A stretch of 64,000 nucleotides of DNA from Escherichia coli (lineage in GTDB: Bacteria; Pseudomonadota; Gammaproteobacteria; Enterobacterales; Enterobacteriaceae), in the NCBI RefSeq assembly GCF_030013595.1, contig NZ_CP122768.1, one strand, 5' to 3'. Made by a program: the position numbers and the translations under genes. The notes beneath the pieces are model-generated. The model was not told the DNA's origin. It saw only the letters and a list, made by a program, of their open reading frames with translations, and did no database searches. Shown piece by piece: positions 33,471 to 57,194 of the stretch; positions within the stretch are counted from its first letter, which is position 1; every line of letters starts with the position of its first letter.

Positions 33471-33706
33471 CTGTCGTAAAAACAATTGGTTATGAATAAA
33501 TTAACTTTCAGTTTATCACACTAGCAAATCGAGATTAATAAGTCATTTAAACCATTTTTATGGTTATTTATTAGTGATATCAACTTGAGGTAAGCGTTAG
33601 TTTCGATAAGATAAACTGAGTTATTAATAGTCGAGGCAGATAATACAGTGTACCGATCTGTCTCTTTATCTACGCTAAATTGAAAGCTGGATTTAGAGGA
33701 ACCAAA

Positions 33707-35224: not shown

Positions 35225-35235
35225 TTTTCACTTTA

Positions 35236-35269
35236 ATGAACGAAGCAGTCAGGCGACTGCTTCGTTCAT
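35236..35269 (+). terminator. Hairpin after lysU
   Basis: atgaacgaagcagtc-aggc-gactgcttcgttcat inverted repeat. Confidence 0.55.
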
Positions 35270-35343
35270 CATTCCGCAAATCCAGTTTTGAGGAGAGACG
35301 CTTCGTTTCACGATAACCAGCGGGTCCACTCAACTACAGCTCC

Positions 35344-35516
35344 TAAAAGAGAGAAAAAAGTAATGCCACAGGCAGACTCATTGGCCAGGTTATTCCTACC
35401 AGGAATGCACTAAGTAAACGAATATGTGTTTTCTCATGTGAGATAAACCAGATAATGACAAAGGATATGTTCACACCAATCACATAAAAAATTAATATTT
35501 TAGAGAATAGTGCCAT
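35344..35516 (-). pseudogene. ghoT: ghoT (type V toxin) with apparent 1-bp deletion causing frameshift after codon 18
   Basis: ATG at 35516 gives MALFSKILIFYVIGVNIS then shifts; the +1 frame continues VIIWFISHEKTHIRLLSAFLVGITWPMSLPVALLFSLF-stop, which restores the recalled 57-aa GhoT. Deletion is in an A-run near 35459-35461. Confidence 0.6.
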
Positions 35517-35543
35517 TTTTTATGTTCTTCTTATCCTTCCTGG

Positions 35544-35840
35544 CTACTTGTAAAACTGACGGAAATAGTCATCAACGGTCATAATGTTGAGGTCAAAGTC
35601 AATATCCGGTAAGTCTAAGCATTTAAGCCTGATTAAATCTTCGATTTCACTTGCGGCTAACGATGTCGTTATTGCGAAGGAGTTTTCATTCAATTGTCGT
35701 GGTATCCCATATTCATCAGCCACGATAGAGGAGAAATTCATATCATACATCAATGATCTTAACCTTAAGAACACTGAGGAATAAGATGATGGATAATCAA
35801 AAGAAACAACATAAGTATTGAACTTGTTTTTACCTTCCAT
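35544..35840 (-). CDS. ghoS: GhoS antitoxin (endoribonuclease) of the GhoT/GhoS type V toxin-antitoxin system
   Basis: 98-aa ORF upstream of ghoT in the same orientation. Confidence 0.85.
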   Translation of the reverse strand: MEGKNKFNTYVVSFDYPSSYSSVFLRLRSLMYDMNFSSIVADEYGIPRQLNENSFAITTSLAASEIEDLIRLKCLDLPDIDFDLNIMTVDDYFRQFYK

Positions 35841-36066
35841 AATATGACTCCTATCAATATTGAACGCTCTGGGGACGCAAAACTTATTAACCCCGATTGA
35901 TGATTCTCATATAGGAGATATTCTTTTTTTTGCTCAGTAAAGGGGATGACTTGGGACAAAAAAACGCGCTCTCTGCCCATTCTTTGTGCATCCCCCTACC
36001 CTTCAGATGCTCACCTGCATCACACCGCGGAGAGCATGAAAAATATTGTGACTCTGTACTCTCCCA

Positions 36067-36339
36067 TCAACTGCGAATATCATCATACTCCCGCGTTTTA
36101 TCAAATTCGTGTTTCGCAAATGGGCATAGTGGGATAATTTTTCGTTTTTCCCGACGCATTTTTTCCACGACTTTCGCAACCAGCTGTTTACCAATCCCCT
36201 GCCCTTTCAGGCTTTCATCGACATCGGTATGTTCGATAATCGCTAAATTCTCTCCGGTCGGCACAAAGACAATTTCAGCGATTTGCTTGCCCTGTTCGTC
36301 ATTAATGTAAAATTTATTGTGGCCTTCGCGTATTTCCAT
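36067..36339 (-). CDS. yjdJ: GNAT-family acetyltransferase-like small protein
   Basis: 90-aa ORF in conserved position next to yjdI. Confidence 0.8.
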
Positions 36340-36350
36340 TTTACCCTCGC

Positions 36351-36581
36351 TTATTTATGACGGTATTTCAGCGCGCCGCTCGGGCACGTATCAATCACTT
36401 TAACCACAGTGGCAACGTCGACTTCATCCGGCATGATCCACGGCTTTCGTTTGAGATTAAATAACTTGCCGTTGCCACGTACGCAATTGCCAGAATGCTG
36501 ACATATCGCAGTATTGAAATAGACATCGATCTTTTCGCCGGTATAACAGCGATAACCCCCGTCCAGTAGCGCCCGATCCAT
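36351..36581 (-). CDS. yjdI: Small conserved protein YjdI
   Basis: 76-aa Cys-containing ORF in conserved position, divergent from dcuS. Confidence 0.75.
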
Positions 36582-36761
36582 GACCTTCCCTCTCTCATCA
36601 GTATGATTATCGCTATAAGCATAGCCCCGGAATCTTCATACAGCACTGGCAGTTTCCGTTGCCAGAATCTCTTCCCCTATATAGCCAATCATTCTTACTC
36701 CCTTTGAATTACCCGCCTCATCAGAGATAATGCTTAAGAAATTTGTCACACAAGGAAGCTG

Positions 36762-38393
36762 ATGAGACATTCATTGCCCTACCGTATGTTACGCAAACGT
36801 CCGATGAAATTGAGTACCACTGTGATCTTAATGGTCAGCGCGGTACTGTTCTCGGTGCTATTGGTGGTGCATCTGATTTACTTCTCGCAAATCAGTGATA
36901 TGACGCGAGACGGGCTAGCCAACAAGGCGCTGGCAGTGGCGCGTACCCTCGCCGACTCGCCGGAAATCCGTCAGGGCTTGCAGAAAAAACCTCAGGAGAG
37001 CGGCATCCAGGCCATCGCGGAAGCCGTGCGCAAACGCAACGATCTGCTATTTATTGTCGTTACCGATATGCAAAGTCTTCGCTACTCGCATCCTGAAGCC
37101 CAGCGTATTGGTCAGCCATTTAAAGGTGATGACATCCTTAAAGCGCTGAATGGCGAAGAAAATGTCGCTATCAATCGCGGTTTTCTGGCGCAGGCTTTAC
37201 GCGTATTTACCCCCATCTACGATGAAAATCATAAACAAATTGGCGTGGTGGCGATCGGCCTTGAGTTAAGTCGCGTGACCCAACAGATCAATGACAGTCG
37301 CTGGAGCATTATCTGGTCGGTATTATTTGGCATGCTGGTCGGACTGATCGGCACCTGCATTCTGGTTAACGTACTGAAAAAAATCCTTTTTGGCCTGGAA
37401 CCCTACGAAATCTCCACGCTGTTTGAGCAGCGCCAGGCCATGTTGCAGTCTATCAAAGAAGGCGTCGTTGCCGTGGACGATCGCGGTGAAGTCACGCTGA
37501 TCAACGATGCCGCACAAGAATTGCTGAATTACCGTAAGTCGCAGGACGATGAGAAACTGTCGACGCTAAGCCACTCGTGGTCACAGGTGGTAGATGTCTC
37601 GGAAGTGTTACGCGACGGTACCCCGCGGCGCGACGAAGAGATTACGATTAAAGACCGGCTATTACTGATCAACACCGTTCCGGTGCGCAGTAATGGCGTT
37701 ATCATCGGTGCCATTTCAACCTTCAGGGACAAAACTGAAGTACGTAAACTGATGCAGCGACTCGATGGTCTGGTCAACTATGCTGACGCACTTCGTGAAC
37801 GATCCCACGAATTTATGAATAAATTGCACGTGATTCTCGGATTATTGCATCTGAAGAGTTATAAGCAGTTGGAAGATTACATTCTCAAAACAGCCAATAA
37901 CTATCAGGAAGAGATTGGCTCTCTGCTGGGTAAGATCAAATCTCCGGTTATCGCTGGTTTTTTAATCAGCAAGATTAACCGCGCGACCGATTTAGGCCAT
38001 ACGCTGATTTTAAACAGTGAAAGCCAGCTGCCAGACAGCGGCAGTGAAGACCAGGTCGCGACGCTGATTACCACGTTGGGAAATCTGATAGAAAACGCGC
38101 TGGAAGCATTAGGGCCGGAACCCGGAGGCGAAATTAGCGTAACATTGCACTACCGTCACGGCTGGCTGCACTGTGAAGTTAATGATGATGGACCGGGGAT
38201 CGCACCCGATAAAATCGATCACATTTTTGACAAAGGTGTCTCGACAAAAGGAAGCGAGCGAGGCGTCGGTTTAGCACTTGTCAAACAACAGGTAGAAAAT
38301 CTCGGCGGCAGCATCGCCGTGGAATCGGAACCCGGGATTTTCACACAATTTTTTGTCCAGATACCCTGGGACGGGGAGAGGTCGAACAGATGA
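36762..38393 (+). CDS. dcuS: C4-dicarboxylate sensor histidine kinase
   Basis: 543-aa ORF with two TM helices, periplasmic sensing domain, PAS and HATPase domains. Confidence 0.95.
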   Translation: MRHSLPYRMLRKRPMKLSTTVILMVSAVLFSVLLVVHLIYFSQISDMTRDGLANKALAVARTLADSPEIRQGLQKKPQESGIQAIAEAVRKRNDLLFIVVTDMQSLRYSHPEAQRIGQPFKGDDILKALNGEENVAINRGFLAQALRVFTPIYDENHKQIGVVAIGLELSRVTQQINDSRWSIIWSVLFGMLVGLIGTCILVNVLKKILFGLEPYEISTLFEQRQAMLQSIKEGVVAVDDRGEVTLINDAAQELLNYRKSQDDEKLSTLSHSWSQVVDVSEVLRDGTPRRDEEITIKDRLLLINTVPVRSNGVIIGAISTFRDKTEVRKLMQRLDGLVNYADALRERSHEFMNKLHVILGLLHLKSYKQLEDYILKTANNYQEEIGSLLGKIKSPVIAGFLISKINRATDLGHTLILNSESQLPDSGSEDQVATLITTLGNLIENALEALGPEPGGEISVTLHYRHGWLHCEVNDDGPGIAPDKIDHIFDKGVSTKGSERGVGLALVKQQVENLGGSIAVESEPGIFTQFFVQIPWDGERSNR

Positions 38394-39109
38394 TCAATGT
38401 ATTAATTATCGATGACGACGCAATGGTCGCGGAGCTGAATCGCCGATACGTAGCACAAATCCCAAGCTTTCAATGCTGTGGAACAGCCTCGACGCTGGAG
38501 AAAGCCAAAGAGATTATCTTCAATAGCGATACGCCTATCGACCTGATATTGCTCGATATCTATATGCAAAAAGAGAACGGGCTCGATTTACTGCCTGTCC
38601 TGCATAACGCGCGTTGCAAAAGTGATGTGATTGTCATCTCCTCCGCAGCCGATGCGGCAACCATTAAAGATTCGCTGCATTACGGTGTCGTGGATTACCT
38701 GATCAAACCCTTCCAGGCTTCCCGCTTTGAAGAGGCGCTCACCGGCTGGCGGCAAAAGAAAATGGCGCTGGAAAAACATCAGTATTATGACCAGGCCGAG
38801 CTTGATCAGCTAATCCACGGCAGCAGCTCCAACGAGCAGGATCCTCGTCGCTTGCCAAAAGGCTTAACGCCGCAGACGTTACGCACGCTGTGCCAGTGGA
38901 TTGACGCGCATCAGGACTATGAGTTTTCAACCGACGAGCTGGCTAACGAGGTTAACATTTCGCGTGTTTCCTGCCGTAAATACCTCATCTGGCTGGTCAA
39001 CTGCCACATCTTGTTCACCAGTATCCATTATGGCGTCACGGGGCGTCCGGTTTACCGTTACCGTATTCAGGCAGAACACTACTCACTGCTGAAACAATAT
39101 TGCCAATAA
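38390..39109 (+). CDS. dcuR: C4-dicarboxylate response regulator
   Basis: 239-aa response regulator; ATGA overlap with dcuS. Confidence 0.95.
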   Translation: MINVLIIDDDAMVAELNRRYVAQIPSFQCCGTASTLEKAKEIIFNSDTPIDLILLDIYMQKENGLDLLPVLHNARCKSDVIVISSAADAATIKDSLHYGVVDYLIKPFQASRFEEALTGWRQKKMALEKHQYYDQAELDQLIHGSSSNEQDPRRLPKGLTPQTLRTLCQWIDAHQDYEFSTDELANEVNISRVSCRKYLIWLVNCHILFTSIHYGVTGRPVYRYRIQAEHYSLLKQYCQ

Positions 39110-39679
39110 CGGATCGCTGGTTATCTGTAAGTAATAATTATTACCGTAATGCAAAATATTCCTGGCACAAGTTACATTCTTCATCAGTAAAACTTGTGCC
39201 AGATCAAATATAATTATCCCTCCATCATCGTTAAAAATTAATATCTCTTCAGATGAACGGTGTTTTTAATTTCAAAACGCTAACAAAAGTTAATTAACTA
39301 TTATGTCACCCGCATTATGTGTATTTTTACCCACAAATGGGTAGATCAGATTAATCTATAAACCTAATGATATCTGCCCTGAGAACAAAAAATAGACCGA
39401 TAAATATCAATAAGATAACAGCAAACAAAACATTAACATCTGCGCAGTACAAACTATAAACCCATCGCCAGAGAGTCATTCTCTCTGAAAAAGCCGCTTA
39501 TCACAGTGCATAAATTTGCCGCTGCTTTAATCAGCCAATATTCACTGTGAGGTATTTGCTAAAGCCGGTAACGACCAAACGGATATTTAGTCAGGCTCTG
39601 AAAACAGTTCATACAAAACAGAACGTGACTGTGATCTATTCAGCAAAAATTTAAATAGGATTATCGCGAGGGTTCACAC
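39110..39679 (+). promoter_or_regulatory. Long AT-rich dcuB upstream control region
   Basis: 570-bp non-coding AT-rich interval ahead of dcuB; sites not individually mapped. Confidence 0.4.
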
Positions 39680-41020
39680 ATGTTATTTACTATCCAACTT
39701 ATCATAATACTGATATGTCTGTTTTATGGTGCCAGAAAGGGTGGTATCGCGCTGGGTTTATTAGGCGGTATCGGTCTGGTCATTCTGGTCTTCGTCTTCC
39801 ACCTTCAGCCAGGTAAACCACCGGTTGATGTCATGCTGGTTATCATTGCGGTGGTGGCGGCATCGGCGACCTTGCAAGCTTCGGGCGGTCTTGATGTCAT
39901 GCTGCAAATTGCCGAGAAGCTGCTGCGCCGCAACCCGAAATATGTCTCAATTGTCGCGCCGTTTGTGACCTGTACGCTGACCATTCTTTGCGGTACGGGT
40001 CATGTGGTTTACACCATTCTGCCGATCATCTACGACGTCGCTATTAAGAACAACATCCGTCCGGAACGCCCGATGGCGGCAAGTTCTATCGGTGCACAGA
40101 TGGGGATTATCGCCAGTCCGGTGTCGGTTGCAGTCGTGTCTCTGGTTGCGATGCTGGGTAATGTCACCTTTGATGGTCGCCATCTTGAGTTCCTCGACCT
40201 GCTAGCAATCACCATTCCATCGACGTTAATCGGTATCCTGGCGATCGGTATCTTCAGCTGGTTCCGCGGTAAAGATCTGGATAAAGACGAAGAGTTCCAG
40301 AAATTCATCTCCGTACCGGAAAACCGTGAGTATGTTTACGGTGATACCGCGACGCTGCTGGATAAAAAACTGCCGAAAAGCAACTGGCTTGCAATGTGGA
40401 TCTTCCTCGGGGCAATCGCTGTAGTCGCCCTTCTTGGTGCTGATTCGGACCTGCGTCCATCCTTCGGCGGCAAACCGCTGTCGATGGTACTGGTTATTCA
40501 GATGTTTATGCTGCTGACCGGGGCGCTGATTATTATCCTGACCAAAACCAATCCCGCGTCTATCTCAAAAAACGAAGTCTTCCGTTCCGGTATGATCGCC
40601 ATCGTGGCGGTGTACGGTATCGCATGGATGGCAGAAACCATGTTCGGTGCGCATATGTCTGAAATTCAGGGCGTACTGGGTGAAATGGTGAAAGAGTATC
40701 CGTGGGCCTATGCCATTGTTCTGCTGCTGGTTTCCAAGTTTGTAAACTCTCAGGCTGCGGCGCTGGCGGCGATTGTTCCGGTCGCGCTGGCGATCGGCGT
40801 TGATCCGGCATACATCGTGGCTTCAGCACCGGCTTGCTACGGTTATTACATCCTGCCGACTTATCCGAGCGATCTGGCAGCGATTCAGTTTGACCGTTCC
40901 GGCACCACCCACATCGGTCGCTTCGTCATCAACCACAGCTTTATTCTGCCGGGGTTGATTGGTGTGAGCGTATCGTGCGTCTTCGGCTGGATCTTCGCCG
41001 CGATGTACGGGTTCTTATAA
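39680..41020 (+). CDS. dcuB: Anaerobic C4-dicarboxylate antiporter
   Basis: 446-aa polytopic membrane ORF. Confidence 0.95.
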
Positions 41021-41029
41021 ATGCACTTT

Positions 41030-41065
41030 GCGTGCCGCCCGTGACTACGCGGCACGCCATTTTCG
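41030..41065 (+). terminator. Hairpin with T-tract after dcuB
   Basis: gcgtgccgc ... gcggcacgc followed by CATTTTCG. Confidence 0.55.
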
Positions 41066-41097
41066 AATAACAAATACAGAGTTACAGGCTGGAAGCT

Positions 41098-42744
41098 ATG
41101 TCAAACAAACCCTTTATCTACCAGGCACCTTTCCCGATGGGGAAAGACAATACCGAATACTATCTACTCACTTCCGATTACGTTAGCGTTGCCGACTTCG
41201 ACGGCGAAACCATTCTGAAAGTGGAACCAGAAGCCCTGACCCTGCTGGCGCAGCAAGCCTTTCACGACGCTTCTTTCATGCTCCGTCCGGCACACCAGAA
41301 ACAGGTTGCGGCTATTCTTCACGATCCAGAAGCCAGCGAAAACGACAAGTACGTGGCGCTGCAATTCTTAAGAAACTCCGAAATCGCCGCCAAAGGCGTG
41401 CTGCCGACCTGCCAGGATACCGGCACCGCAATCATCGTCGGTAAAAAAGGTCAGCGCGTGTGGACCGGCGGCGGTGATGAAGAAGCACTGTCGAAAGGCG
41501 TGTACAACACCTATATCGAAGATAACCTGCGCTACTCGCAAAACGCGGCGCTGGACATGTACAAAGAGGTCAACACCGGCACTAACCTGCCTGCGCAAAT
41601 CGACCTGTACGCGGTAGATGGCGATGAGTACAAATTCCTCTGTGTCGCTAAAGGCGGCGGCTCTGCCAACAAAACCTATCTCTACCAGGAAACCAAAGCC
41701 CTGCTGACTCCCGGCAAACTGAAAAACTTCCTCGTTGAGAAAATGCGTACCCTCGGTACTGCAGCCTGCCCGCCGTACCATATCGCGTTTGTGATTGGCG
41801 GTACGTCTGCGGAAACCAACCTGAAAACCGTCAAGTTAGCAAGCGCTCACTATTATGATGAACTGCCGACGGAAGGGAACGAACATGGTCAGGCGTTCCG
41901 CGATGTCCAACTGGAACAGGAACTGCTGGAAGAGGCCCAGAAACTCGGTCTTGGCGCGCAGTTTGGCGGTAAATACTTCGCGCACGACATTCGCGTTATC
42001 CGTCTGCCACGTCACGGCGCATCCTTCCCGGTAGGCATGGGAGTCTCCTGCTCCGCTGACCGTAACATTAAAGCGAAAATCAACCGCGAAGGTATCTGGA
42101 TCGAAAAACTGGAACACAATCCAGGCCAGTACATTCCACAAGAACTGCGTCAGGCCGGTGAAGGCGAAGCGGTGAAAGTCGACCTTAACCGCCCGATGAA
42201 AGAGATCCTCGCCCAGCTTTCGCAATATCCGGTTTCCACTCGTTTGTCGCTCACCGGCACCATTATTGTGGGTCGAGATATTGCACACGCCAAGCTGAAA
42301 GAGCTGATTGACTCCGGTAAAGAACTTCCGCAGTACATCAAAGATCACCCGATCTACTACGCGGGTCCGGCGAAAACGCCTGCCGGTTATCCATCAGGTT
42401 CACTTGGCCCAACCACCGCAGGTCGTATGGACTCCTACGTGGATCTGCTGCAATCCCACGGCGGCAGCATGATCATGCTGGCGAAAGGTAACCGCAGTCA
42501 GCAGGTTACCGACGCGTGTCATAAACATGGCGGCTTCTACCTCGGTAGTATCGGCGGTCCGGCGGCGGTACTGGCGCAGCAGAGCATCAAGCATCTGGAA
42601 TGCGTCGCTTATCCGGAGCTGGGTATGGAAGCTATCTGGAAAATCGAAGTAGAAGATTTCCCGGCGTTTATCCTGGTCGATGACAAAGGCAACGACTTCT
42701 TCCAGCAAATCGTCAACAAACAGTGCGCGAACTGCACTAAGTAA
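41098..42744 (+). CDS. fumB: Class I (Fe-S) fumarate hydratase, anaerobic isozyme
   Basis: 548-aa ORF downstream of dcuB. Confidence 0.93.
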
Positions 42745-42866
42745 CCTCTTCGGCCCAGCGCCTGGCAGCATGCTGCCAGGTGATCCCCCTGGGCCACCTC
42801 TTTTGCGATTGTAATTTCACGCTTGCTGGTGAATAGTCAGTATTTTCCCTGACTTGCGAACTCACC

Positions 42867-43496
42867 ATGACCCGCACACTCAAGCCGTTAATTCTTAACA
42901 CCGGCGCACTGGCGCTAACGTTAATCCTGATTTATACCGGCATTTCGGCCAATGACAAACTCACCTGGCTGATGGAAGTGACACCGGTGATTATTGTCGT
43001 GCCGCTACTGCTTGCCACCGCTAAACGTTATCCGTTAACGCCGCTGCTCTATACGCTCATTTTCTTTCACGCCATCATCCTGATGGTCGGCGGACAATAC
43101 ACCTACGCGAAAGTCCCCGTTGGTTTTGAGGTGCAGGAATGGCTGGGGTTGAGTCGTAATCCGTATGACAAACTGGGGCATTTTTTCCAAGGGCTGGTGC
43201 CTGCACTGGTGGCACGAGAGATCCTTGTGCGCGGGATGTACGTTCGCGGACATAAGATGGTGGCGTTTCTGGTCTGCTGCGTGGCGCTGGCGATAAGCGC
43301 GATGTATGAATTAATCGAGTGGTGGGCGGCGCTGGCAATGGGTCAGGGAGCGGATGATTTTCTCGGCACCCAGGGCGACCAGTGGGACACGCAATCCGAT
43401 ATGTTCTGCGCGCTGCTTGGCGCATTAACGACGGTGATATTCCTCGCTCGCTTTCATTGCCGCCAGCTACGGCGCTTTGGCTTGATAACCGGATAA
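42867..43496 (+). CDS. yjdF: Inner membrane protein YjdF
   Basis: 209-aa membrane ORF in conserved position. Confidence 0.85.
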   Translation: MTRTLKPLILNTGALALTLILIYTGISANDKLTWLMEVTPVIIVVPLLLATAKRYPLTPLLYTLIFFHAIILMVGGQYTYAKVPVGFEVQEWLGLSRNPYDKLGHFFQGLVPALVAREILVRGMYVRGHKMVAFLVCCVALAISAMYELIEWWAALAMGQGADDFLGTQGDQWDTQSDMFCALLGALTTVIFLARFHCRQLRRFGLITG

Positions 43497-43515
43497 CAAC
43501 GTGCGCTTTGTTGAC

Positions 43516-43549
43516 GCCGGATGCGGCGTGAATTCCTTATCCGGTCTAC
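43516..43549. repeat. REP (repetitive extragenic palindromic) element
   Basis: gccggatgcggcgtgaattccttatccggtctac, classic REP sequence. Confidence 0.8.
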
Positions 43550-44083
43550 AAAATTTGCAAATCCAAAGCATTACATTAAGACATGGCCTGATAAACATAT
43601 CGCATCAGGCCATTTTCGTTAGCTATTGTCCACGTCAGGCTTTCACATCACTCACTGCACCGACCGGAATATCAGCATGAACAGGCTCGGGCGGTACTTT
43701 GCGATATTTATCCAGCAGATGGATCTGGATCCTGCGCAGCGTGCACCATTGAGGCGATAGAAACGGAAGTAGAGAATCAGCGTTACCATGAAAAACAGAG
43801 TCGGTAGAGCAATCATAATAAACTGCATACCTAATAGGGCTTGCGTAGACTGTTCAACATTCGGTACATAGCCAATCATCCCTAACACAACCGCAATGAA
43901 AAAAGCCGCAAAGGCTGAACCGCCCTTCACCACCATAGTCTGCACGGAGTAAGCGATGCTTTCACAGCGTACGTGCAGTTTATATTCACCGTAATCAACG
44001 GTATCTGCCACCATGATGACCTGTAATACCCAGAAAAGCGCCGTTCCCACATTCAGCAAGATACCCGCAATCACAATGAGGAC

Positions 44084-44092
44084 GACGTTGTG
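44084..44092. repeat. Target-site duplication (gacgttgtg), left copy
   Basis: Identical 9 bp directly flank both ends of IS1 copy 2. Confidence 0.9.
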
Positions 44093-44107
44093 GGTAATGA
44101 CTCCAAC

Positions 44108-44611
44108 TTACTGATAGTGTTTTATGTTCAGATAATGCCCGATGACCTTGTCATGCAGCTCCACCGATTTTGAGAACGACAGTGACTTCCGTCCCAGCCT
44201 TGCCAGATGTTGTCTCAGATTCAGGTTATGCCGCTCAATGCGCTGAGTATAACGCTTGCTGATAACGTGCAGCTTTCCCTTCAGGCGTGATTCATACAGC
44301 GGCCAGCCATCCGTCATCCATACCACGACCTCAAAGGCCGACAGCAGGCTCAGAAGACGCTCCAGTGTGGCCAGAGTGCGTTCACCGAAGACGTGCGCCA
44401 CAACCGTCCTCCGCATCCTGTCATACGCGTAAAACAGCCAGCGCTGACGTGATTTAGCACCGACGTAGCCCCACTGTTCGTCCATTTCAGCGCAGACAAT
44501 CACATCACTGCCCGGTTGTATGCGCGAGGTTACCGACTGCGGCCTGAGTTTTTTAAGTGGCGGAAAATCGTGTTGAGGCCAACGCCAATAATGCGTGCAC
44601 TGGCGCGACAT
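44108..44611 (-). CDS. insB: IS1 transposase InsB reading frame
   Basis: Identical translation to copy 1. Confidence 0.9.
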
Positions 44612-44805
44612 CCGACGCCATTCATGGCCATATCAATGATTTTCTGGTGCGTACCGGGCTGAGAGGCGGCGTAAGTGAACTGTAGTTGCCATGTTTTACG
44701 GCAGTGAGAGCAGAGATAGCGCTGATGTCCGGCGGTGCTTTTGCCGTTACGCACCACCCCGTCAGTAGCTGAACAGGAGGGACAGCTGATAGAAACAGAA
44801 GCCAC
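44530..44805 (-). CDS. insA: IS1 InsA
   Basis: Identical translation to copy 1. Confidence 0.9.
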
Positions 44806-44860
44806 TGGAGCACCTCAAAAACACCATCATACACTAAATCAGTAAGTTGGCAGCATCACC

Positions 44861-44869
44861 GACGTTGTG
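44861..44869. repeat. Target-site duplication (gacgttgtg), right copy
   Basis: See left copy. Confidence 0.9.
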
Positions 44870-45934
44870 ATAGCTCATTAATGCCATTAACAGGAGAACA
44901 CCACAGCTTAACACCGGAAGAATAGATGCTCCGGCCCATAAAATGCGTCGGGATAATGATTTAACTAAGCGTGGGAAGAATACTAACGTCACCAGATTAG
45001 CAGCTCCCGCATACGACAGATAATAGGGGAACAAATCCGCATCACCGATAACATATGAGAAATAATAGATAGCAAAGCCGGTAATAATATTGCTGGCTAC
45101 ATTATAAGCAAGAGCCATACCCAAGAGGCATGAAAGCTGATCGTTTTTATAAATTAGCGCAACGATGGCTTTAAGTGTCAGATGGCTTCCTTCAGCAGAC
45201 GGTTGATTGTCTGACGAAAAGACTTCATGCACATTGCGCAGAGTGATGATGGTTGAAACAATAAAAAAGGCGATCAGTACCAGAGTGAACATCTGAAAGC
45301 CAAATCCCCGATCGCCACCGCCGACATAATTAACAAATGGTAGCGTCACACCTGCCGTAACAAAGCCTGCCAGACTGGCAAAAAAACGCGGATAAGGAAC
45401 CAGTTGTTCGCGCTCACGTTTATCGAGCGTTATGGTTGGAACCAGCGACCAGAAGGGAATATCCATAATGGTGTAAGTCATGCCCCAGAGGATGTAGGTC
45501 ACGCAAACAAAGACAATCTGAGTAGTACCTTCAAACAGATGCGCACTAAAGAGGAGAAATAAGATTACAGAGTTTGCCAACGTACCGATCAGGATCCAGG
45601 GTTTGAACTTACCCCATCGCGATCGCGTAGCATTTACAATCCATCCCATAATCGGATCGTTAATAGCATCCCAGATCCTCGCCACCAGAAACAAAGTACC
45701 GACCAAACCCACAGACAGCCCGACGACATCGGTGTAGTAATACATGAGGTACATATACACAATGCCGATCGCAAAATCCTTCCCGAACGCTCCAAATCCA
45801 TAACTGAGTTTTGTAGTCATTGAAATGCTCATAGGGTATCGGGTCGTTGTTACCAACGCCCGCCTTCTGTTATTGGTATCGTCAGAGGTGTGCGCCGGAA
45901 TAAATCCCCCGGCGCAGTAGCGTTTAGTCGCGTT

Positions 45935-47290
45935 TTAACGGTGCAACCAGCCTGGCAGCCAGTCGCCGTGGGCGGCAATCAGGTCGTCAACAAGAGCATA
46001 TATTTCGTCAATGCCCAGCACGGCGGCAGTATGCGGGTCCATCATCGCGGCGTGGTAAACACGGTCGCGGTTTTCCGTAAGAATGGCTTCGGTCAGCAGC
46101 GTCTGTACGTTGATGTTGGTTTGCATCAGAGCGGCCAGATGCGAAGGTAGCGTACCGACTTTGGTCGGCTGAATGCCATTAGCATCAACCAGACAGGCTA
46201 CTTCCACGCAACATCCTTGTGGCAGGTTATCAATCAAATCATCGTTACGGACGTTGCCGTAAATCACACTCGGCTCGCCAGTCCAGATAGCGTTCATGAT
46301 TGTGCTGGCATATTCCCGTGACGGTTTAATATCAATCCGGGAGGCGTTTTTATACTCCTCCAGCTCTTTATGCCAGTTCGCCAGCTGCTCGACGCAGCGT
46401 TTCGGGTACTCATCCAGCGGTACTTTATAACGCTCAATCAAATCCTCACGACCTGGCTTAATAAACCACGGTGTGTACTCAGCAAAATGTTCTGACGATT
46501 CCGTGACGAAGTAGCCCAGCTTTTTGAACATTTCGTAGCGCACAATATTCTGGCAGCGAGTATTGCCATGAATATTCGGCTTCGGTGCCTGCCCTGCTTC
46601 ATAAGCCGCCAGCAGTTCCGGGTAGAGATTCACGTAACTGCCGTCGGCGGTTTTGCGCTCCAGTTCCAGGTAAAACGCCATATGGTTGATACCTGCACAA
46701 CGGTAACGCAGCGTAGACGGGTCGATATTGAGGTCACGCGCCAGCTCTTCCGCCGTTCCCTGCACCGAATGGCACAGCCCTACCTGTTTGATATGCGGAT
46801 AGCGGGCATACATCGCCCAGGTATTCATCGCCATTGGGTTAACATAGTTGAGCATGGTGGCATCGGGGCAGACTTCCGTCATGTCCTCGCAAATTTGCCA
46901 CAGATGCGGAATGGTACGTAGCGCGCGCATAATACCGCCCGGCCCCAACGTATCGGCAATGGTTTGTTCCAGACCATGCCGCTTACAGACCTCGAAATCA
47001 GTCACCGTGCAAGGTTCATAACCGCCAATCTGAAATGCCACCACGACAAAATCAGCATCCTGTAAGGCTTCTTTCTGTTGGGTGTGGCAGGTGATTTTGC
47101 CGCTGGCCCCTGCTGAATCCATCAGCTTACGCACCACAATGTGCGACTCTTCCAGGCGGGTGGGATCAATGTCCATCAGGGCAATATGCGCCGTTTTCAG
47201 CGCCTCGCGATGGAACACATCACCAAGAATATTTTTAACGAAAATCGTCGAACCAGCGCCGATAAATGTAATTTTGGGTGCAGACATCAT
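45935..47290 (-). CDS. melA: Alpha-galactosidase (NAD/Mn-dependent, GH4)
   Basis: 451-aa ORF with N-terminal Rossmann motif; upstream of melB in the same orientation. Confidence 0.95.
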   Translation of the reverse strand: MMSAPKITFIGAGSTIFVKNILGDVFHREALKTAHIALMDIDPTRLEESHIVVRKLMDSAGASGKITCHTQQKEALQDADFVVVAFQIGGYEPCTVTDFEVCKRHGLEQTIADTLGPGGIMRALRTIPHLWQICEDMTEVCPDATMLNYVNPMAMNTWAMYARYPHIKQVGLCHSVQGTAEELARDLNIDPSTLRYRCAGINHMAFYLELERKTADGSYVNLYPELLAAYEAGQAPKPNIHGNTRCQNIVRYEMFKKLGYFVTESSEHFAEYTPWFIKPGREDLIERYKVPLDEYPKRCVEQLANWHKELEEYKNASRIDIKPSREYASTIMNAIWTGEPSVIYGNVRNDDLIDNLPQGCCVEVACLVDANGIQPTKVGTLPSHLAALMQTNINVQTLLTEAILTENRDRVYHAAMMDPHTAAVLGIDEIYALVDDLIAAHGDWLPGWLHR

Positions 47291-47572
47291 GCAGATCTCC
47301 TAGCTTGCTTGAATAACTTCATCATGGCAGGCGAATCTGCAGAAAACCTCCGGCTTCCAGGTTGAGCATTCCCATAAACTCAGATCCTACGTGAAGCAGC
47401 AGTAAATCTGAGTTTATGGGAATAAATTACCTGAAAAGCAGAGTTTTCGGCCTCAGAATGCTCGGACGGTCCCCTCGCCTCTCTGGGAAGAGAGTGAAAA
47501 CCGTGCTCCCACTCGCAGTCATCCTCCCTCACTCCTGCCATAATTCTGATATTCCAGGAAAGAGAGCCATCC
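47291..47572. promoter_or_regulatory. melR-melAB divergent control region
   Basis: Intergenic region between divergent melA and melR; sites not individually mapped. Confidence 0.5.
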
Positions 47573-48481
47573 ATGAATAAAGATACGTTTATGTGCAGTA
47601 GCGACGAAAAACAGACCCGCAGCCCGCTATCGCTGTATTCGGAATACCAGCGGATGGAGATTGAGTTTCGCGCACCGCATATCATGCCCACCAGCCACTG
47701 GCATGGTCAGGTCGAAGTGAATGTGCCTTTCGATGGCGATGTGGAATACCTGATCAACAATGAAAAAGTGAATATCAATCAGGGTCATATCACGCTGTTC
47801 TGGGCCTGTACACCGCACCAACTAACAGATACCGGAACCTGTCAGAGCATGGCGATTTTTAATCTGCCGATGCATCTGTTTCTCTCCTGGCCGCTGGATA
47901 AAGACCTGATTAACCACGTCACTCACGGTATGGTGATCAAATCACTGGCGACACAGCAACTTAGCCCGTTTGAAGTGCGCCGCTGGCAGCAGGAATTGAA
48001 CAGTCCGAACGAGCAAATTCGCCAGCTCGCCATTGATGAAATTGGCCTGATGCTCAAGCGATTTAGCCTCTCTGGCTGGGAACCGATTCTGGTCAATAAA
48101 ACCTCGCGCACACACAAAAACAGCGTCTCGCGCCATGCGCAATTTTATGTCAGCCAGATGCTGGGCTTTATTGCCGAAAACTATGATCAGGCGCTGACCA
48201 TCAACGATGTGGCTGAGCACGTCAAACTTAACGCCAACTATGCAATGGGGATATTCCAGCGGGTCATGCAATTGACGATGAAACAGTACATTACCGCGAT
48301 GCGCATCAACCACGTTCGCGCGTTACTGAGCGATACCGATAAAAGTATTCTCGATATTGCCCTGACGGCAGGCTTTCGTTCAAGTAGTCGTTTTTACAGC
48401 ACGTTCGGCAAATATGTCGGCATGTCGCCGCAACAATACCGCAAACTTAGCCAACAGCGCCGCCAGACGTTTCCCGGCTAA
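47573..48481 (+). CDS. melR: AraC-family melibiose operon activator
   Basis: 302-aa ORF with C-terminal AraC-type HTH. Confidence 0.93.
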   Translation: MNKDTFMCSSDEKQTRSPLSLYSEYQRMEIEFRAPHIMPTSHWHGQVEVNVPFDGDVEYLINNEKVNINQGHITLFWACTPHQLTDTGTCQSMAIFNLPMHLFLSWPLDKDLINHVTHGMVIKSLATQQLSPFEVRRWQQELNSPNEQIRQLAIDEIGLMLKRFSLSGWEPILVNKTSRTHKNSVSRHAQFYVSQMLGFIAENYDQALTINDVAEHVKLNANYAMGIFQRVMQLTMKQYITAMRINHVRALLSDTDKSILDIALTAGFRSSSRFYSTFGKYVGMSPQQYRKLSQQRRQTFPG

Positions 48482-48679
48482 AGACGATATCAGTATCAGC
48501 CAAAAAAATAGTTTAGCCGTCGATAATAAGCAGTGAAAATAATTTAAAATAATCACATAACATATTGTTTATAAAAACAAATATTTCAAAAATGTTTGTT
48601 TTTCACGCGCTTTACAGCCCGAAAAGGCCGGAAGATACTTGCCCGCACCGAAGATTCCTTCATAACCGGGTAAGCAATG

Positions 48680-50947
48680 ATGAAAGTATTAATTGTTGAA
48701 AGCGAGTTTCTCCATCAAGACACCTGGGTCGGTAACGCCGTTGAGCGTCTGGCAGATGCTTTAAGCCAGCAAAATGTTACCGTGATTAAATCCACCTCCT
48801 TTGATGATGGTTTTGCCATTCTCTCTTCAAACGAAGCCATTGACTGCCTGATGTTCAGCTATCAAATGGAACATCCGGACGAACATCAAAACGTCAGACA
48901 ATTGATCGGTAAGCTTCATGAGCGCCAACAAAACGTGCCGGTCTTCCTGTTGGGCGATCGGGAAAAAGCCCTCGCCGCAATGGATCGCGACCTGCTGGAG
49001 CTTGTCGATGAATTCGCCTGGATTCTGGAAGATACCGCCGACTTTATCGCCGGACGCGCCGTTGCCGCGATGACCCGCTACCGCCAGCAACTGTTGCCGC
49101 CACTGTTCAGCGCGCTGATGAAATATAGCGACATCCATGAATATTCCTGGGCAGCACCAGGCCACCAGGGTGGCGTTGGTTTTACCAAAACACCCGCCGG
49201 ACGTTTCTACCATGACTACTATGGTGAAAACCTGTTCCGCACCGACATGGGCATCGAACGAACTTCCCTCGGTTCTTTGCTTGACCATACTGGCGCATTT
49301 GGCGAAAGCGAAAAATATGCTGCACGCGTATTTGGTGCCGATCGCTCCTGGTCGGTAGTCGTCGGTACTTCCGGCTCTAACCGCACCATCATGCAGGCTT
49401 GCATGACCGATAACGATGTCGTGGTCGTTGACCGTAACTGCCATAAATCCATCGAACAAGGCTTGATGCTGACAGGCGCGAAACCGGTCTACATGGTGCC
49501 AAGCCGCAACCGCTACGGCATTATCGGGCCAATCTATCCGCAGGAAATGCAACCTGAAACCTTGCAGAAGAAAATCAGTGAAAGCCCGCTGAATAAAGAC
49601 AAAGCCGGGCAAAAACCGTCTTACTGCGTGGTGACCAACTGCACCTATGACGGCGTGTGTTATAACGCTAAAGAAGCGCAGGATCTGCTGGAAAAAACCT
49701 CCGATCGTCTGCACTTTGACGAAGCCTGGTACGGCTATGCACGTTTCAACCCGATCTATGCCGATCACTATGCCATGCGCGGCGAACCTGGCGATCACAA
49801 CGGTCCTACCGTTTTCGCCACCCACTCCACCCACAAACTGCTGAATGCGCTGTCACAGGCCTCTTATATTCATGTACGTGAAGGTCGTGGGGCGATTAAC
49901 TTCTCCCGCTTCAACCAGGCCTACATGATGCATGCCACCACCTCCCCGCTGTATGCCATCTGCGCATCCAACGACGTGGCGGTGTCGATGATGGACGGCA
50001 ACAGCGGCCTGTCACTGACCCAGGAAGTGATCGACGAAGCGGTTGATTTCCGTCAGGCGATGGCGCGGCTGTATAAAGAGTTCACCGCTGACGGTAGCTG
50101 GTTCTTCAAACCGTGGAACAAAGAAGTCGTCACCGACCCACAAACCGGCAAAACCTATGACTTTGCTGACGCACCAACCAAACTGCTGACCACCGTTCAG
50201 GACTGCTGGGTCATGCATCCGGGCGAAAGCTGGCACGGCTTCAAAGATATTCCGGATAACTGGAGTATGCTCGACCCGATTAAAGTCAGCATCCTTGCTC
50301 CGGGAATGGGTGAAGATGGTGAACTGGAAGAAACCGGTGTTCCGGCGGCGCTGGTCACTGCCTGGCTTGGTCGCCACGGCATTGTGCCTACCCGCACCAC
50401 TGACTTCCAAATTATGTTCCTGTTCTCTATGGGCGTAACCCGTGGGAAATGGGGGACTCTGGTTAACACCCTTTGCTCCTTCAAACGCCACTATGACGCC
50501 AACACACCGCTGGCGCAGGTGATGCCGGAACTTGTTGAACAATATCCTGACACTTACGCGAACATGGGGATTCACGATCTGGGTGACACCATGTTTGCCT
50601 GGCTGAAAGAAAACAACCCTGGCGCACGGTTGAACGAAGCCTATTCCGGCCTGCCGGTGGCGGAAATCACCCCGCGTGAAGCGTACAACGCGATTGTCGA
50701 CAACAATGTCGAACTGGTATCCATTGAAAATCTGCCAGGACGCATCGCGGCAAACTCAGTTATCCCGTATCCGCCAGGAATCCCGATGCTGCTGTCTGGT
50801 GAAAACTTCGGCGATAAAAACAGTCCGCAAGTAAGTTATTTACGCTCGCTGCAATCCTGGGACCATCATTTCCCTGGATTTGAACACGAAACAGAAGGGA
50901 CAGAAATTATTGACGGTATTTACCACGTTATGTGTGTGAAAGCGTAA
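48680..50947 (+). CDS. adiA: Biodegradative (acid-inducible) arginine decarboxylase
   Basis: 755-aa PLP-dependent decarboxylase paralogous to CadA; ORF track starts one Met codon earlier (48677). Confidence 0.95.
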   Translation: MKVLIVESEFLHQDTWVGNAVERLADALSQQNVTVIKSTSFDDGFAILSSNEAIDCLMFSYQMEHPDEHQNVRQLIGKLHERQQNVPVFLLGDREKALAAMDRDLLELVDEFAWILEDTADFIAGRAVAAMTRYRQQLLPPLFSALMKYSDIHEYSWAAPGHQGGVGFTKTPAGRFYHDYYGENLFRTDMGIERTSLGSLLDHTGAFGESEKYAARVFGADRSWSVVVGTSGSNRTIMQACMTDNDVVVVDRNCHKSIEQGLMLTGAKPVYMVPSRNRYGIIGPIYPQEMQPETLQKKISESPLNKDKAGQKPSYCVVTNCTYDGVCYNAKEAQDLLEKTSDRLHFDEAWYGYARFNPIYADHYAMRGEPGDHNGPTVFATHSTHKLLNALSQASYIHVREGRGAINFSRFNQAYMMHATTSPLYAICASNDVAVSMMDGNSGLSLTQEVIDEAVDFRQAMARLYKEFTADGSWFFKPWNKEVVTDPQTGKTYDFADAPTKLLTTVQDCWVMHPGESWHGFKDIPDNWSMLDPIKVSILAPGMGEDGELEETGVPAALVTAWLGRHGIVPTRTTDFQIMFLFSMGVTRGKWGTLVNTLCSFKRHYDANTPLAQVMPELVEQYPDTYANMGIHDLGDTMFAWLKENNPGARLNEAYSGLPVAEITPREAYNAIVDNNVELVSIENLPGRIAANSVIPYPPGIPMLLSGENFGDKNSPQVSYLRSLQSWDHHFPGFEHETEGTEIIDGIYHVMCVKA

Positions 50948-51064
50948 CCACTATTCCGCTGAAGGCGTAATTGTTAAATAACATTACGCCGCCTGGCTTG
51001 AGGCCTTTTAAGTATGGCAACGTTTTCATAAAAATTGCTGCAAACAAAAAATGTCATGCTTTTT

Positions 51065-51091
51065 GCGCGGTCCCACCCCGCGCTTTTTTTT
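51065..51091 (+). terminator. Rho-independent terminator after adiA
   Basis: gcgcgg-tcccacc-ccgcgc hairpin followed by T8. Confidence 0.8.
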
Positions 51092-51282
51092 GCCTGTTAT
51101 TTATCCTTTTTTTAGCCTGTAAAAAAATATGTACATGAGAAATTACTATAAAAATTTGTAATATTAGTAAAACTCGTTATTTTTATGCATGTTTATATTC
51201 ATCATACAATTATATAACCATTTCCCGGTATCGCTTTGCTTTAGCGAGAACTGGTCTTTTATTCGCACTCAGGAGTACATGT

Positions 51283-52044
51283 ATGAGGATTTGCAGCGAC
51301 CAACCTTGTATTGTTTTATTGACTGAAAAAGATGTCTGGATAAGGGTGAATGGGAAAGAACCTATTAGCCTTAAAGCTAACCATATGGCGTTATTAAATT
51401 GTGAAAATAATATTATCGACGTCTCCTCTCTTAATAACACTTTGGTTGCTCATATTAGTCACGACATCATCAAAGATTACCTCCGGTTTCTGAATAAAGA
51501 TCTCTCGCAAATACCAGTATGGCAACGTAGCGCTACGCCCATCCTCACTCTGCCATGCCTGACGCCAGACGTCTTTCGCGTTGCCGCGCAACACAGCATG
51601 ATGCCCGCTGAAACTGAGTCAGAAAAGGAACGAACACGTGCATTATTATTCACTGTGCTATCCCGTTTTCTCGACAGTAAAAAATTCCTTTCACTAATGA
51701 TGTATATGTTACGTAATTGTGTAAGTGACAGCGTTTATCAAATTATTGAAAGCGATATCCACAAAGACTGGAATCTTAGTATGGTAGCCAGTTGTTTATG
51801 TCTTAGCCCGAGTCTGTTAAAGAAAAAGCTGAAAAGCGAAAACACCAGTTATAGCCAAATAATCACCACCTGCCGCATGCGTTATGCCGTAAATGAATTA
51901 ATGATGGACGGTAAAAATATCTCTCAGGTATCACAGTCCTGCGGCTACAACAGTACGTCGTACTTTATTTCTGTCTTTAAAGACTTCTACGGTATGACGC
52001 CTCTGCATTATGTTAGTCAGCACAGAGAACGCACTGTCGCCTGA
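51283..52044 (+). CDS. adiY: AraC-family regulator of the adi system
   Basis: 253-aa ORF with C-terminal AraC HTH, between adiA and adiC. Confidence 0.9.
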   Translation: MRICSDQPCIVLLTEKDVWIRVNGKEPISLKANHMALLNCENNIIDVSSLNNTLVAHISHDIIKDYLRFLNKDLSQIPVWQRSATPILTLPCLTPDVFRVAAQHSMMPAETESEKERTRALLFTVLSRFLDSKKFLSLMMYMLRNCVSDSVYQIIESDIHKDWNLSMVASCLCLSPSLLKKKLKSENTSYSQIITTCRMRYAVNELMMDGKNISQVSQSCGYNSTSYFISVFKDFYGMTPLHYVSQHRERTVA

Positions 52045-52180
52045 TTTTTAACCTTAACGAAGAGCTATATTAATAACGGCATCAGCGATAACCTGGTCGA
52101 TAATAATTCAACTATCGAATGCAGGCGTATGATATGACGTAATTTATTGTCACGAAGCTCGCCTTCGCAGGAGTTTAATT

Positions 52181-53518
52181 ATGTCTTCGGATGCTGATGC
52201 TCACAAAGTGGGCTTAATCCCCGTCACCCTGATGGTGTCGGGGAATATTATGGGGTCAGGTGTTTTTCTGTTACCTGCAAACCTGGCCTCCACTGGCGGG
52301 ATTGCCATTTATGGATGGTTGGTGACGATTATCGGTGCGCTGGGGCTCTCGATGGTATACGCCAAAATGTCGTTCCTCGACCCAAGTCCTGGTGGTTCTT
52401 ACGCTTACGCCCGCCGCTGCTTTGGCCCGTTTCTCGGTTATCAAACCAACGTCCTCTATTGGCTGGCCTGCTGGATCGGCAATATCGCCATGGTGGTCAT
52501 TGGCGTAGGTTATTTAAGTTACTTCTTCCCGATTCTGAAAGATCCATTGGTATTAACCATCACCTGCGTCGTGGTGCTGTGGATCTTCGTCCTGCTGAAT
52601 ATTGTCGGTCCGAAAATGATCACCCGCGTGCAGGCCGTTGCCACCGTGCTGGCGCTGATCCCCATCGTCGGGATTGCCGTATTTGGCTGGTTCTGGTTCC
52701 GTGGTGAAACCTATATGGCGGCATGGAACGTCAGCGGCCTGGGCACCTTCGGCGCGATTCAAAGTACCCTTAACGTTACGCTGTGGTCGTTCATCGGTGT
52801 GGAAAGTGCCTCCGTTGCCGCAGGTGTGGTGAAAAACCCGAAACGCAACGTCCCTATCGCCACCATTGGTGGGGTATTGATTGCCGCCGTTTGCTATGTG
52901 CTCTCCACCACCGCGATTATGGGGATGATCCCTAATGCCGCACTGCGCGTTTCTGCCTCGCCATTCGGTGATGCCGCACGGATGGCGTTGGGTGACACCG
53001 CCGGGGCCATTGTTTCCTTCTGCGCAGCTGCGGGCTGCTTAGGTTCACTGGGCGGCTGGACATTGCTGGCGGGTCAAACGGCGAAAGCCGCTGCCGATGA
53101 CGGACTGTTCCCACCAATTTTTGCCCGTGTTAATAAAGCGGGTACACCAGTGGCGGGGCTGATTATCGTCGGTATTTTGATGACCATCTTCCAGCTCAGC
53201 AGCATTTCACCAAACGCGACCAAAGAGTTCGGTCTGGTTTCTTCCGTCTCGGTCATCTTTACACTGGTGCCATATCTTTACACCTGTGCGGCGTTACTGC
53301 TGCTCGGCCACGGTCACTTTGGTAAAGCACGCCCGGCATATCTGGCAGTTACTACCATTGCCTTCCTCTACTGCATCTGGGCCGTGGTGGGGTCCGGGGC
53401 GAAAGAGGTTATGTGGTCATTTGTCACCCTGATGGTCATCACCGCCATGTATGCGCTGAATTACAACCGGCTGCATAAAAACCCGTATCCCTTAGATGCA
53501 CCAATAAGCAAAGATTAA
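52181..53518 (+). CDS. adiC: Arginine:agmatine antiporter
   Basis: 445-aa APC-family transporter, paralogous to CadB. Confidence 0.95.
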
Positions 53519-53544
53519 TTCCCCTTAATCCAGCAAACATAAAA

Positions 53545-53580
53545 GCCAACCTTAAGAACTTAAGGTTGGCTTAATTTTGC
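53545..53580 (+). terminator. Rho-independent terminator after adiC
   Basis: gccaaccttaag ... cttaaggttggc hairpin followed by TTAATTTTGC. Confidence 0.7.
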
Positions 53581-53621
53581 TTTGCGAGCATATGCGCACT
53601 TTGTTCGATGGAAACACCGTG

Positions 53622-55265
53622 ATGTTGAAGCGCCTACTAAAAAGACCCTCTTTGAATTTACTCGCCTGGCTATTGTTGGCCGCTTTTTATATCTCTATCT
53701 GCCTGAATATTGCCTTTTTTAAACAGGTGTTACAGGCGCTGCCGCTGGACTCGCTGCATAACGTACTGGTTTTCTTGTCGATGCCGGTCGTCGCTTTCAG
53801 CGTGATTAATATTGTCCTGACACTAAGCTCTTTCTTATGGCTTAATCGACCGCTGGCCTGCCTGTTTATTCTGGTCGGCGCGGCTGCACAATATTTCATA
53901 ATGACTTACGGCATCGTCATCGACCGCTCGATGATTGCCAATATTATTGATACCACTCCGGCAGAAAGTTATGCGTTGATGACGCCACAAATGTTATTAA
54001 CGCTGGGATTCAGCGGCGTGCTTGCTGCGCTGATTGCCTGCTGGATTAAAATCAAACCTGCCGCCTCGCGCCTGCGCAGTGTTCTTTTCCGTGGAGCCAA
54101 TATTCTGGTTTCTGTACTGCTGATTTTGCTGGTCGCCGCACTGTTTTATAAAGACTACGCCTCATTGTTCCGCAACAACAAAGAGCTGGTGAAGTCCTTA
54201 AGCCCCTCTAATAGCATTGTTGCCAGCTGGTCATGGTACTCCCATCAGCGACTGGCAAATCTGCCGCTGGTGCGAATTGGAGAAGACGCGCACCGCAACC
54301 CATTAATGCAGAACGAGACACGTAAAAATTTGACCATCCTGATTGTCGGCGAAACCTCGCGGGCGGAGAACTTCTCCCTCAACGGCTACCCGCGTGAAAC
54401 TAACCCGCGGTTGGCGAAAGATAACGTGGTCTATTTCCCTAATACCGCATCTTGCGGCACGGCAACGGCAGTTTCAGTACCGTGCATGTTCTCGGATATG
54501 CCGCGTGAGCACTACAAAGAAGAGCTGGCACAGCACCAGGAAGGCGTGCTGGATATCATTCAGCGAGCGGGCATCAACGTGCTGTGGAATGACAACGATG
54601 GCGGCTGTAAAGGTGCCTGCGACCGCGTGCCTCACCAGAACGTCACCGCGCTGAATCTGCCTGGTCAGTGCATCAACGGCGAATGCTATGACGAAGTGCT
54701 GTTTCACGGGCTGGAAGAGTACATCAATAACCTGCAGGGTGATGGCGTGATTGTCTTACACACCATCGGCAGCCACGGTCCGACCTATTACAACCGCTAT
54801 CCGCCGCAGTTCAGGAAATTTACCCCTACCTGCGACACTAACGAGATCCAGACCTGTACCAAAGAGCAACTGGTGAACACTTACGACAACACGTTGGTTT
54901 ACGTCGACTATATTGTTGATAAAGCGATTAATCTGCTGAAAGAACATCAGGATAAATTCACCACCAGCCTGGTTTATCTTTCTGACCACGGTGAGTCGTT
55001 AGGTGAAAATGGCATCTATCTGCACGGTCTGCCTTATGCCATCGCCCCGGATAGCCAAAAACAGGTACCAATGCTGCTGTGGCTGTCGGAGGATTATCAA
55101 AAACGGTATCAGGTTGACCAGAACTGCCTGCAAAAACAGGCGCAAACGCAACACTATTCACAAGATAATTTATTCTCCACGCTATTGGGATTAACTGGCG
55201 TTGAGACGAAGTATTACCAGGCTGCGGATGATATTCTGCAAACTTGCAGGAGAGTGAGTGAATGA
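53622..55265 (+). CDS. eptA: Lipid A phosphoethanolamine transferase
   Basis: 547 aa from [10 protein letters not shown]...; N-terminal TM helices plus sulfatase-like domain; ORF track start 53577 is an upstream extension into the adiC terminator. Confidence 0.92.
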
Positions 55266-55930: not shown

Positions 55931-55939
55931 TTGAATCTG

Positions 55940-57096: not shown

Positions 57097-57165
57097 TGCA
57101 CTCTCCTCCGTTAACCTGGAGGAGAGTATGCGCGTCAGAGATTAAGTGAACCTTAAGACTTCAAT

Positions 57166-57194
57166 TGGCCTGATAAGACAGCGTCACATCAGGC
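57166..57194. repeat. REP-like palindromic element between pmrR and proP
   Basis: ggcctgataagacagcgtcacatcaggcc palindrome. Confidence 0.6.

Follow-up and report, generated by a model that had tools for sequence, protein, structure and literature searches.

An IS1 insertion and a single-nucleotide deletion in the melibiose carrier gene melB of an Escherichia coli chromosome related to pig isolates

Organization of the melibiose locus

The window analysed here, 64,000 nucleotides of an Escherichia coli chromosome (contig NZ_CP122768.1), begins with a genomic island, and its right two thirds are collinear with K-12 in the order cadC'-cadBA-dtpC-lysU...dcuSR-dcuB-fumB-yjdF-melB-melA-melR-adiA-adiY-adiC-eptA-basRS-proP. 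The interrupted gene between yjdF and melA is the orthologue of melB: the order melR-melA-melB-yjdF is that of K-12, and the Pfam domain MFS_2 is recognizable on both of its fragments (Table 1). The single uninterrupted reading frame of 12 helices plus tail that characterizes MelB is absent, being broken by an IS1 element after codon 324 and by a frameshift at codon 438. As it stands, melB is a pseudogene, without functional membership in the GPH family or among the Pfam MFS_2 transporters, and the appropriate annotation is a pseudogene with two lesions over the whole of the remnant. An earlier note on this DNA, made from the sequence alone, had placed the damaged gene at 43652-45832; the right end of that span stands, whereas its left end is where the shifted frame stops, short of the native stop codon.

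The same note held melA and melR to be intact, and both are indeed full length and encode products identical to those of the nearest relative with an intact melB, pig isolate HCP5S3_I2; relative to K-12, MelA has four amino acid differences and MelR has one. Downstream genes should escape any polar effect, since melB stands at the end of melAB and faces yjdF in convergent orientation.

The closest complete genomes are those of two UK pig faecal isolates, HCP5S3_I2 and LCP30S3_I5, with 99.9% identity over 18 kb (next best, 99.3%). The melB gene of HCP5S3_I2 is annotated as intact (473 aa, WP_000028114.1), and its sequence differs from positions 39000-49000 of the window, once IS1 is left aside (~9.2 kb), at only four places: single-nucleotide polymorphisms (SNPs) at 42026 (fumB), 43190 (yjdF) and 47302, and the deletion in melB. 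Since so close a relative retains an intact gene, both lesions must be recent and specific to the strain or its sublineage. A third lesion, whether within melB itself or in the control region of melAB, was considered and rejected, as no more differences from HCP5S3_I2 lie inside melB. The SNP at 47302 is seen in the window alone. On the melA strand it is a C>T change, 12 nt before the ATG, that turns gcCAGGAG into gcTAGGAG; the altered base directly precedes the Shine-Dalgarno sequence of melA, whose AGGAG is preserved. The adiA gene of HCP5S3_I2 (3133-5392 of the retrieved locus) has an 8-bp gap and is annotated 'frameshifted', whereas adiA of the window is intact.

Table 1. Features of the disrupted melB gene and its neighbours
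Feature	Position	Strand	Description
melB remnant	43635-45832	-	native stop codon 43635-43637
melB 3' fragment	43635-44092	-	native codons 322-473, one target-duplication copy; carries the 1-nt deletion
Premature stop, shifted frame	43652-43654	-	after 30-residue tail
1-nt deletion site	43743-43744	-	A of GAC (D438, CDS nt 1313) absent; native GGTGACACG, here GGTGCACG
Target-site duplication, copy 1	44084-44092		GACGTTGTG; on melB strand CACAACGTC, codons H322 N323 V324
IS1	44093-44860	-	768 bp, complete; transposase genes co-directional with melB
IS1 imperfect terminal inverted repeats	44093-44115 and 44838-44860
insB' frame	44108-44611	-	167-aa ORF; Pfam DDE_Tnp_IS1 positions 1-131/131
insA	44530-44805	-	91 aa; Pfam Zn_ribbon_InsA and HTH_Tnp_IS1, both full length
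Target-site duplication, copy 2	44861-44869		GACGTTGTG
melB 5' fragment	44861-45832	-	codons 1-324, helices I-IX; Pfam MFS_2 positions 1-309/427
melA (alpha-galactosidase)	45935-47290	-	451 aa, intact; upstream of melB in melAB operon
melR (AraC-type activator)	47573-48481	+	302 aa, intact

Anatomy of the IS1 insertion

The event that split melB is a simple IS1 transposition with a perfect 9-bp target duplication. The ends of the element (GGTAATGACTCCAACTTACTGAT and GGTGATGCTGCCAACTTACTGAT) match at 18 of 23 positions, as expected of the ~23-bp terminal repeats of the IS1 family, and the 9-bp duplication typical of the family is present without mismatch on both sides; the target corresponds to nt 964-972 of the melB coding sequence (codons H322-N323-V324). 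When IS1 and one copy of the repeat are taken out, by joining 43600-44092 to 44870-45900, the product is collinear with K-12 melB, from which it differs by eight substitutions and a single 1-nt gap at CDS nt 1313, in codon 438. This exact restoration of melB means that chance resemblance is not an issue, and it bears out what had been proposed from the sequence: an insertion after ...SYHNV with a perfect duplication, simple in kind. The 5' fragment reads from ...SYHNV through eight codons of IS1 (GDAANLLI*) to a stop at 44834-44836, and the 3' fragment aligns with K-12 melB nt 964-1422 with the one gap, matching MFS_2 positions 321-426/427.

The element itself is intact and probably active, to judge from its reading frames, its ends and the existence of two identical copies. 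The slippery A6C motif (AAAAAAC) occupies IS1 nt 307-313 (44548-44554 of the window); a -1 shift there yields a reconstructed InsAB' transposase of 232 aa, the length of the IS1 coding sequences that PGAP annotates with a 'programmed frameshift' in relatives, and PF03811, PF12759 and PF03400 are all matched over their full length (E-values 3e-21 to 1e-74). The copy in melB is 100% identical to, and in the same orientation as, a second copy in the window (26558-27325). This variant of IS1 is an uncommon one: of the 9,595 records that match it, just 150 do so at 99% identity or better, and the 100% identical copies among the matches listed are nearly all from porcine E. coli (UMNF18, O139:H1 and O141:H4 strains, swine plasmids), a distribution that fits a pig-associated origin of the strain.

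In its 768-bp length, ~23-bp inverted repeats, insA/insB' arrangement with A6C motif, 9-bp duplication and disruption of a gene, the insertion conforms to classical IS1 insertional inactivation; it differs in no point of mechanism, and what is specific here is the target (melB codons 322-324) and the sequence variant of IS1. The two identical direct copies (26558-27325 and 44093-44860) were considered as the ends of a composite transposon; this was rejected, as the copy in melB has a target-site duplication of its own and the outer flanks differ.

A probable second lesion: deletion of one nucleotide in codon 438

The small indel that the sequence alone had suggested near 43741-43745 is a deletion of one nucleotide within that 5-bp interval, 340 bp downstream of the IS1 lesion in the direction of melB transcription. 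It turns GGT GAC ACG into GGT GCA CG and is the sole gap in melB relative to K-12, HCP5S3_I2 and strain 7/2. The translation is altered from D438A onward, and the native last 36 residues are replaced by 30 unrelated ones (ARCAG...RSVQ), such that the 3' fragment ends ...RLNGARCAG...SVQ* in a frame that alignment of both fragments with K-12 melB confirms to be non-native. Up to residue 437 the repaired MelB is identical to WP_000028114.1, and I352T is its only difference from K-12 MelB.

Comparison with near-identical relatives favours reading the deletion as a real mutation. It is the sole indel of the window in the ~61 kb that can be aligned to close relatives (27326-44092 and 44860-64000 against HCP5S3_I2, 1-26557 against porcine O141:H4 strain P13-6); the one other gap is the 8-bp defect in adiA of HCP5S3_I2. 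A single indel in ~61 kb indicates an assembly free of indel noise, and an error placed at random would land in melB only ~2% of the time, whereas a dead gene tolerates frameshifts. That the IS1 insertion alone is real and the deletion is a sequencing or assembly error is improbable, even though 1-base indels are the commonest consensus error of long-read assemblies, deposited genomes do carry such defects (the 'frameshifted' adiA of HCP5S3_I2 is one), and the allele is unique across the collections searched. Neither the deletion allele nor the exact locus occurs among 5,426 RefSeq complete E. coli genomes searched by megablast, where the best match reaches 99.8%, a difference equal to the gap; the frameshift allele is likewise absent from exact-protein look-ups of 17 possible products, including a hypothetical MelB with the frameshift only, and from an exact 35-mer scan of JGI metagenomes. 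Against an error stand the sequence of the site (GGTG[A]CACG), which is no homopolymer, the lack of any second window indel in the comparison above, and the location of the deletion in the one gene of the region already without selection, a co-occurrence to be expected, by a rough estimate, ~10 times more often of a real mutation than of an error placed at random.

Consequences for MelB and for melibiose utilization

In MelB, helix X comprises residues 325-351 and ends with D351/D354, and helix XI contributes K377 to the lining of the sugar site (PMC10942615, PMC4026327). [quoted passage not shown] Insertion of IS1 would part helices I-IX from helices X-XII, with D351, D354 and K377 among the residues cut off. 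The first start codon of the C-terminal reading frame is a GTG at V328, inside helix X, and it lacks a Shine-Dalgarno sequence within reach: the closest GGAG stands 26 nt upstream, in the end of IS1. As read from the DNA, the C-terminal piece has neither a promoter nor a ribosome-binding site of its own, and the IS1 lesion alone should abolish MelB; we infer that MelB function is lost. Bibi and Kaback (1990, in the reference list of PMC4308713) reportedly found that split halves of LacY complement each other in vivo, and on that precedent the two melB fragments, if co-expressed, might form a working split permease; the chance of this is close to nil here, given a C-terminal frame that opens within helix X without a usable Shine-Dalgarno sequence, for which no promoter is known and which is frameshifted as well.

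The frameshift is a different matter. By itself it would keep all 12 transmembrane helices and replace the tail helix, and it might or might not inactivate the permease. The earlier note was correct in regarding the two lesions as separate mutations; the frameshift follows the last transmembrane helix. The tail mutants at D438, R441 and I445 (Kuroda et al. 1992, cited in PMC10942615) have in common with this allele the residue at which the frameshift starts, D438. As the citing paper describes them, they are missense mutants that retain a working permease with altered regulation by EIIA-Glc, whereas the present strain has the whole tail replaced and the gene also split by IS1. A search of a literature library for published data on C-terminal truncation of the melibiose carrier returned none.

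Loss of MelB need not entail loss of melibiose utilization. Melibiose is also transported by LacY (PMC4308713), for which reason MelB is assayed in hosts that are melA+ delta-melB delta-lacZY (PMC4026327). The strain resembles one such host, DW2, in being melA+ melB-, with the enzyme present and the carrier absent (PMC4026327, PMC4308713); DW2 differs in that lacY is absent too, and is hence transport-negative. If lacY, which lies outside the window, is functional and induced, the strain may still take up and ferment melibiose. Since LacY carries the sugar, a melibiose-negative phenotype is not assured and fermentation cannot be predicted from melB alone; the phenotype first proposed for this DNA, retention of enzyme and regulator with loss of melibiose transport, holds in its first part and is overstated in its second.

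Proposed history of the two lesions

Very probably, two unrelated mutations have left melB a pseudogene in this E. coli chromosome, which is most closely related to those of pig isolates. In the sequence of events proposed here, an intact IS1 would have transposed into codons 322-324, duplicating 9 bp and costing the cell MelB; a deletion of one nucleotide in codon D438 would have exchanged the cytoplasmic C-terminal tail; and melibiose would now enter, and induce MelR, only via another carrier such as LacY. The simplest reading of the order is IS1 first, at a favoured site, with the deletion then accumulating neutrally in a dead gene. The opposite order, in which the frameshift came first as a functional change (inactivating MelB, or removing inducer exclusion by EIIA-Glc) and IS1 followed, appears doubtful, if less so than a sequencing error: the deletion strikes D438 itself, on the face implicated in EIIA-Glc binding and in a helix that stabilises the inner barrier (PMC10942615), and the frameshift-only protein would still span the membrane with all its helices; yet no melB with the frameshift only occurs in the collections searched, insertion of IS1 at this target is evidently frequent, which makes its precedence the simpler assumption, and the sequence gives no date for either event. 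A search for a genome of this lineage with a single lesion found no such intermediate.

Recurrent insertion of IS1 at the same nine nucleotides

The target of the insertion is shared with other E. coli. In strain H489 these nine base pairs hold an IS1 that points the other way and is flanked by the same perfect target-site duplication. Strain 24AR0357 has an identical C-side junction formed by an IS1B-like variant (48 mismatches), the other junction being at melB nt 761; EC291 has an identical N-side junction, and melB from nt 973 to just past the stop codon is gone. The same N-side junction is found in draft GCA_004103985.1, on a K-12-like backbone that has diverged ~1% from the window; this draft, of a different strain, is the only source of the exact 332-aa N-terminal product. 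Four more assemblies or metagenome contigs, of three haplotypes, have the C-side junction in common with the window. Elsewhere in melB, IS1 is inserted at nt 953-961 (12 genomes), 976, ~811, ~753-761 (3 genomes), 741-748, ~690 (29 genomes) and ~1230. The junction searches join pieces on one strand only, and orientation bias lies outside what they measure; a search of JGI metagenomes for the IS1/melB junction found none.

Were insertion uniform, ~12 events in a gene of 1.4 kb would be expected to yield ~0.05 coincident pairs. The single 9-mer at nt 964-972 has received at least three clearly independent insertions, and probably at least five, which is strongly non-random. The competing account, that a single ancestral insertion gave rise to the common junction and was passed on by descent or recombination, is very improbable. 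It can appeal to the homogenization of IS1 copies within a genome, exemplified by the two identical copies of the window, by which differences between IS1 variants are no proof of independence; but H489 has the opposite orientation and its own target-site duplication at the identical 9 bp, the flanks of the carriers differ by 0.3-2%, the haplotype of the window parts from the others at a distance of 24 bp (melB nt 996) on one side of the junction and of 127 bp on the other, and the closest relative of the window is without the insertion.

We consider it reasonably likely that nt 964-972 (CACAACGTC) strongly attracts IS1 as a natural hot spot, in either orientation and for different IS1 variants, in at least three, probably at least five, independent E. 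coli lineages, with more IS1 sites clustered within ~250 bp (among them nt 953-961, 976 and ~741-761). The repeated losses of melB, many of them in livestock-associated strains, could be due to target preference by itself or to selection acting on MelB loss. The frameshift at D438, a separate matter, might at one time have yielded a permease freed from EIIA-Glc. Resemblance of the hot spot to the ends of IS1 was examined as an explanation and rejected: the best local alignment scores 9, a value attained by 28% of other melB windows. The AT content at the hot spot is unremarkable (0.50-0.55). A literature search on melB, IS1 and melibiose found no paper describing this allele or this hot spot.

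Interruption of melB by IS1 is already annotated by PGAP, as pseudogenes, in 24AR0357, EC291, N32, the SLK172 group and the group of ~29 genomes with IS1 near nt 690. Among these, 24AR0357 and EC291 have one junction of the exact target seen here; each keeps that one junction only, with the adjacent part of melB lost, whereas the window has both junctions and an intact target-site duplication, in a different haplotype and with an extra 1-nt deletion that is absent from the others. As biology this is routine gene decay driven by an insertion sequence, a known process, and it is unusual only in the repeated use of the same nine bases. The gain is modest: an IS1 hot spot in a chromosomal gene, mapped to the base, that recurs in natural isolates and could be used as a natural target for the study of IS1 site selection, together with a caution that identical insertion-sequence junctions in different strains need not mean common descent.

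Some of the related alleles have features of their own. The IS1 of 24AR0357 (3104-3871 of the retrieved locus) joins nt 761, itself an IS1 site in three other genomes, which points to one of two origins: two IS1 copies recombined, or IS1 mediated a deletion of adjacent sequence. In EC291 the element occupies 3334-4101 of the retrieved locus. A metagenome scaffold in ENA (~440-470) has a melB allele with a 13-bp deletion (...GGCATTA/ACGTCGTCC..., ATGAGCTATCACA missing); the deleted segment lies exactly between two neighbouring IS1 target sites, and the deletion may be the footprint of an imprecise loss of IS1.

The second IS1 copy, the cad locus and the adjoining island

IS1 copy 1 (26558-27325) is without a target duplication, its flanks being ...AATAACTGG and GACAATGCA.... 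It joins a ribokinase-like gene of the pheU island (25647-26540), cut ~10 bp inside its 5' end, to cadC from nt 838 onward. The cadC remnant (27326-28027) has lost its first ~837 nt, which encode the DNA-binding and membrane parts, and the rest of the island is gone as well; the truncation looks like an IS1-mediated deletion. With cadBA intact but its activator lost, the strain is predicted to be lysine-decarboxylase negative.

The island that adjoins the cad locus (1-26557) is 100% identical to that of porcine O141:H4 strain P13-6; at the same place HCP5S3_I2 has only tRNA-Phe and an integrase remnant. Its genes include a cluster, presumably of the aryl-polyene type, for an MMPL transporter, a glycosyltransferase, an acyl-CoA synthetase and several ketoacyl-ACP synthases, and also sugar genes (PTS, fucP-like and epimerase). 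The two identical direct IS1 copies lie 17.5 kb apart and bracket cadC'-cadBA-dtpC-lysU-dcuSR-dcuB-fumB-yjdF-'melB, which makes the bracketed segment a ready substrate for deletion by homologous recombination.
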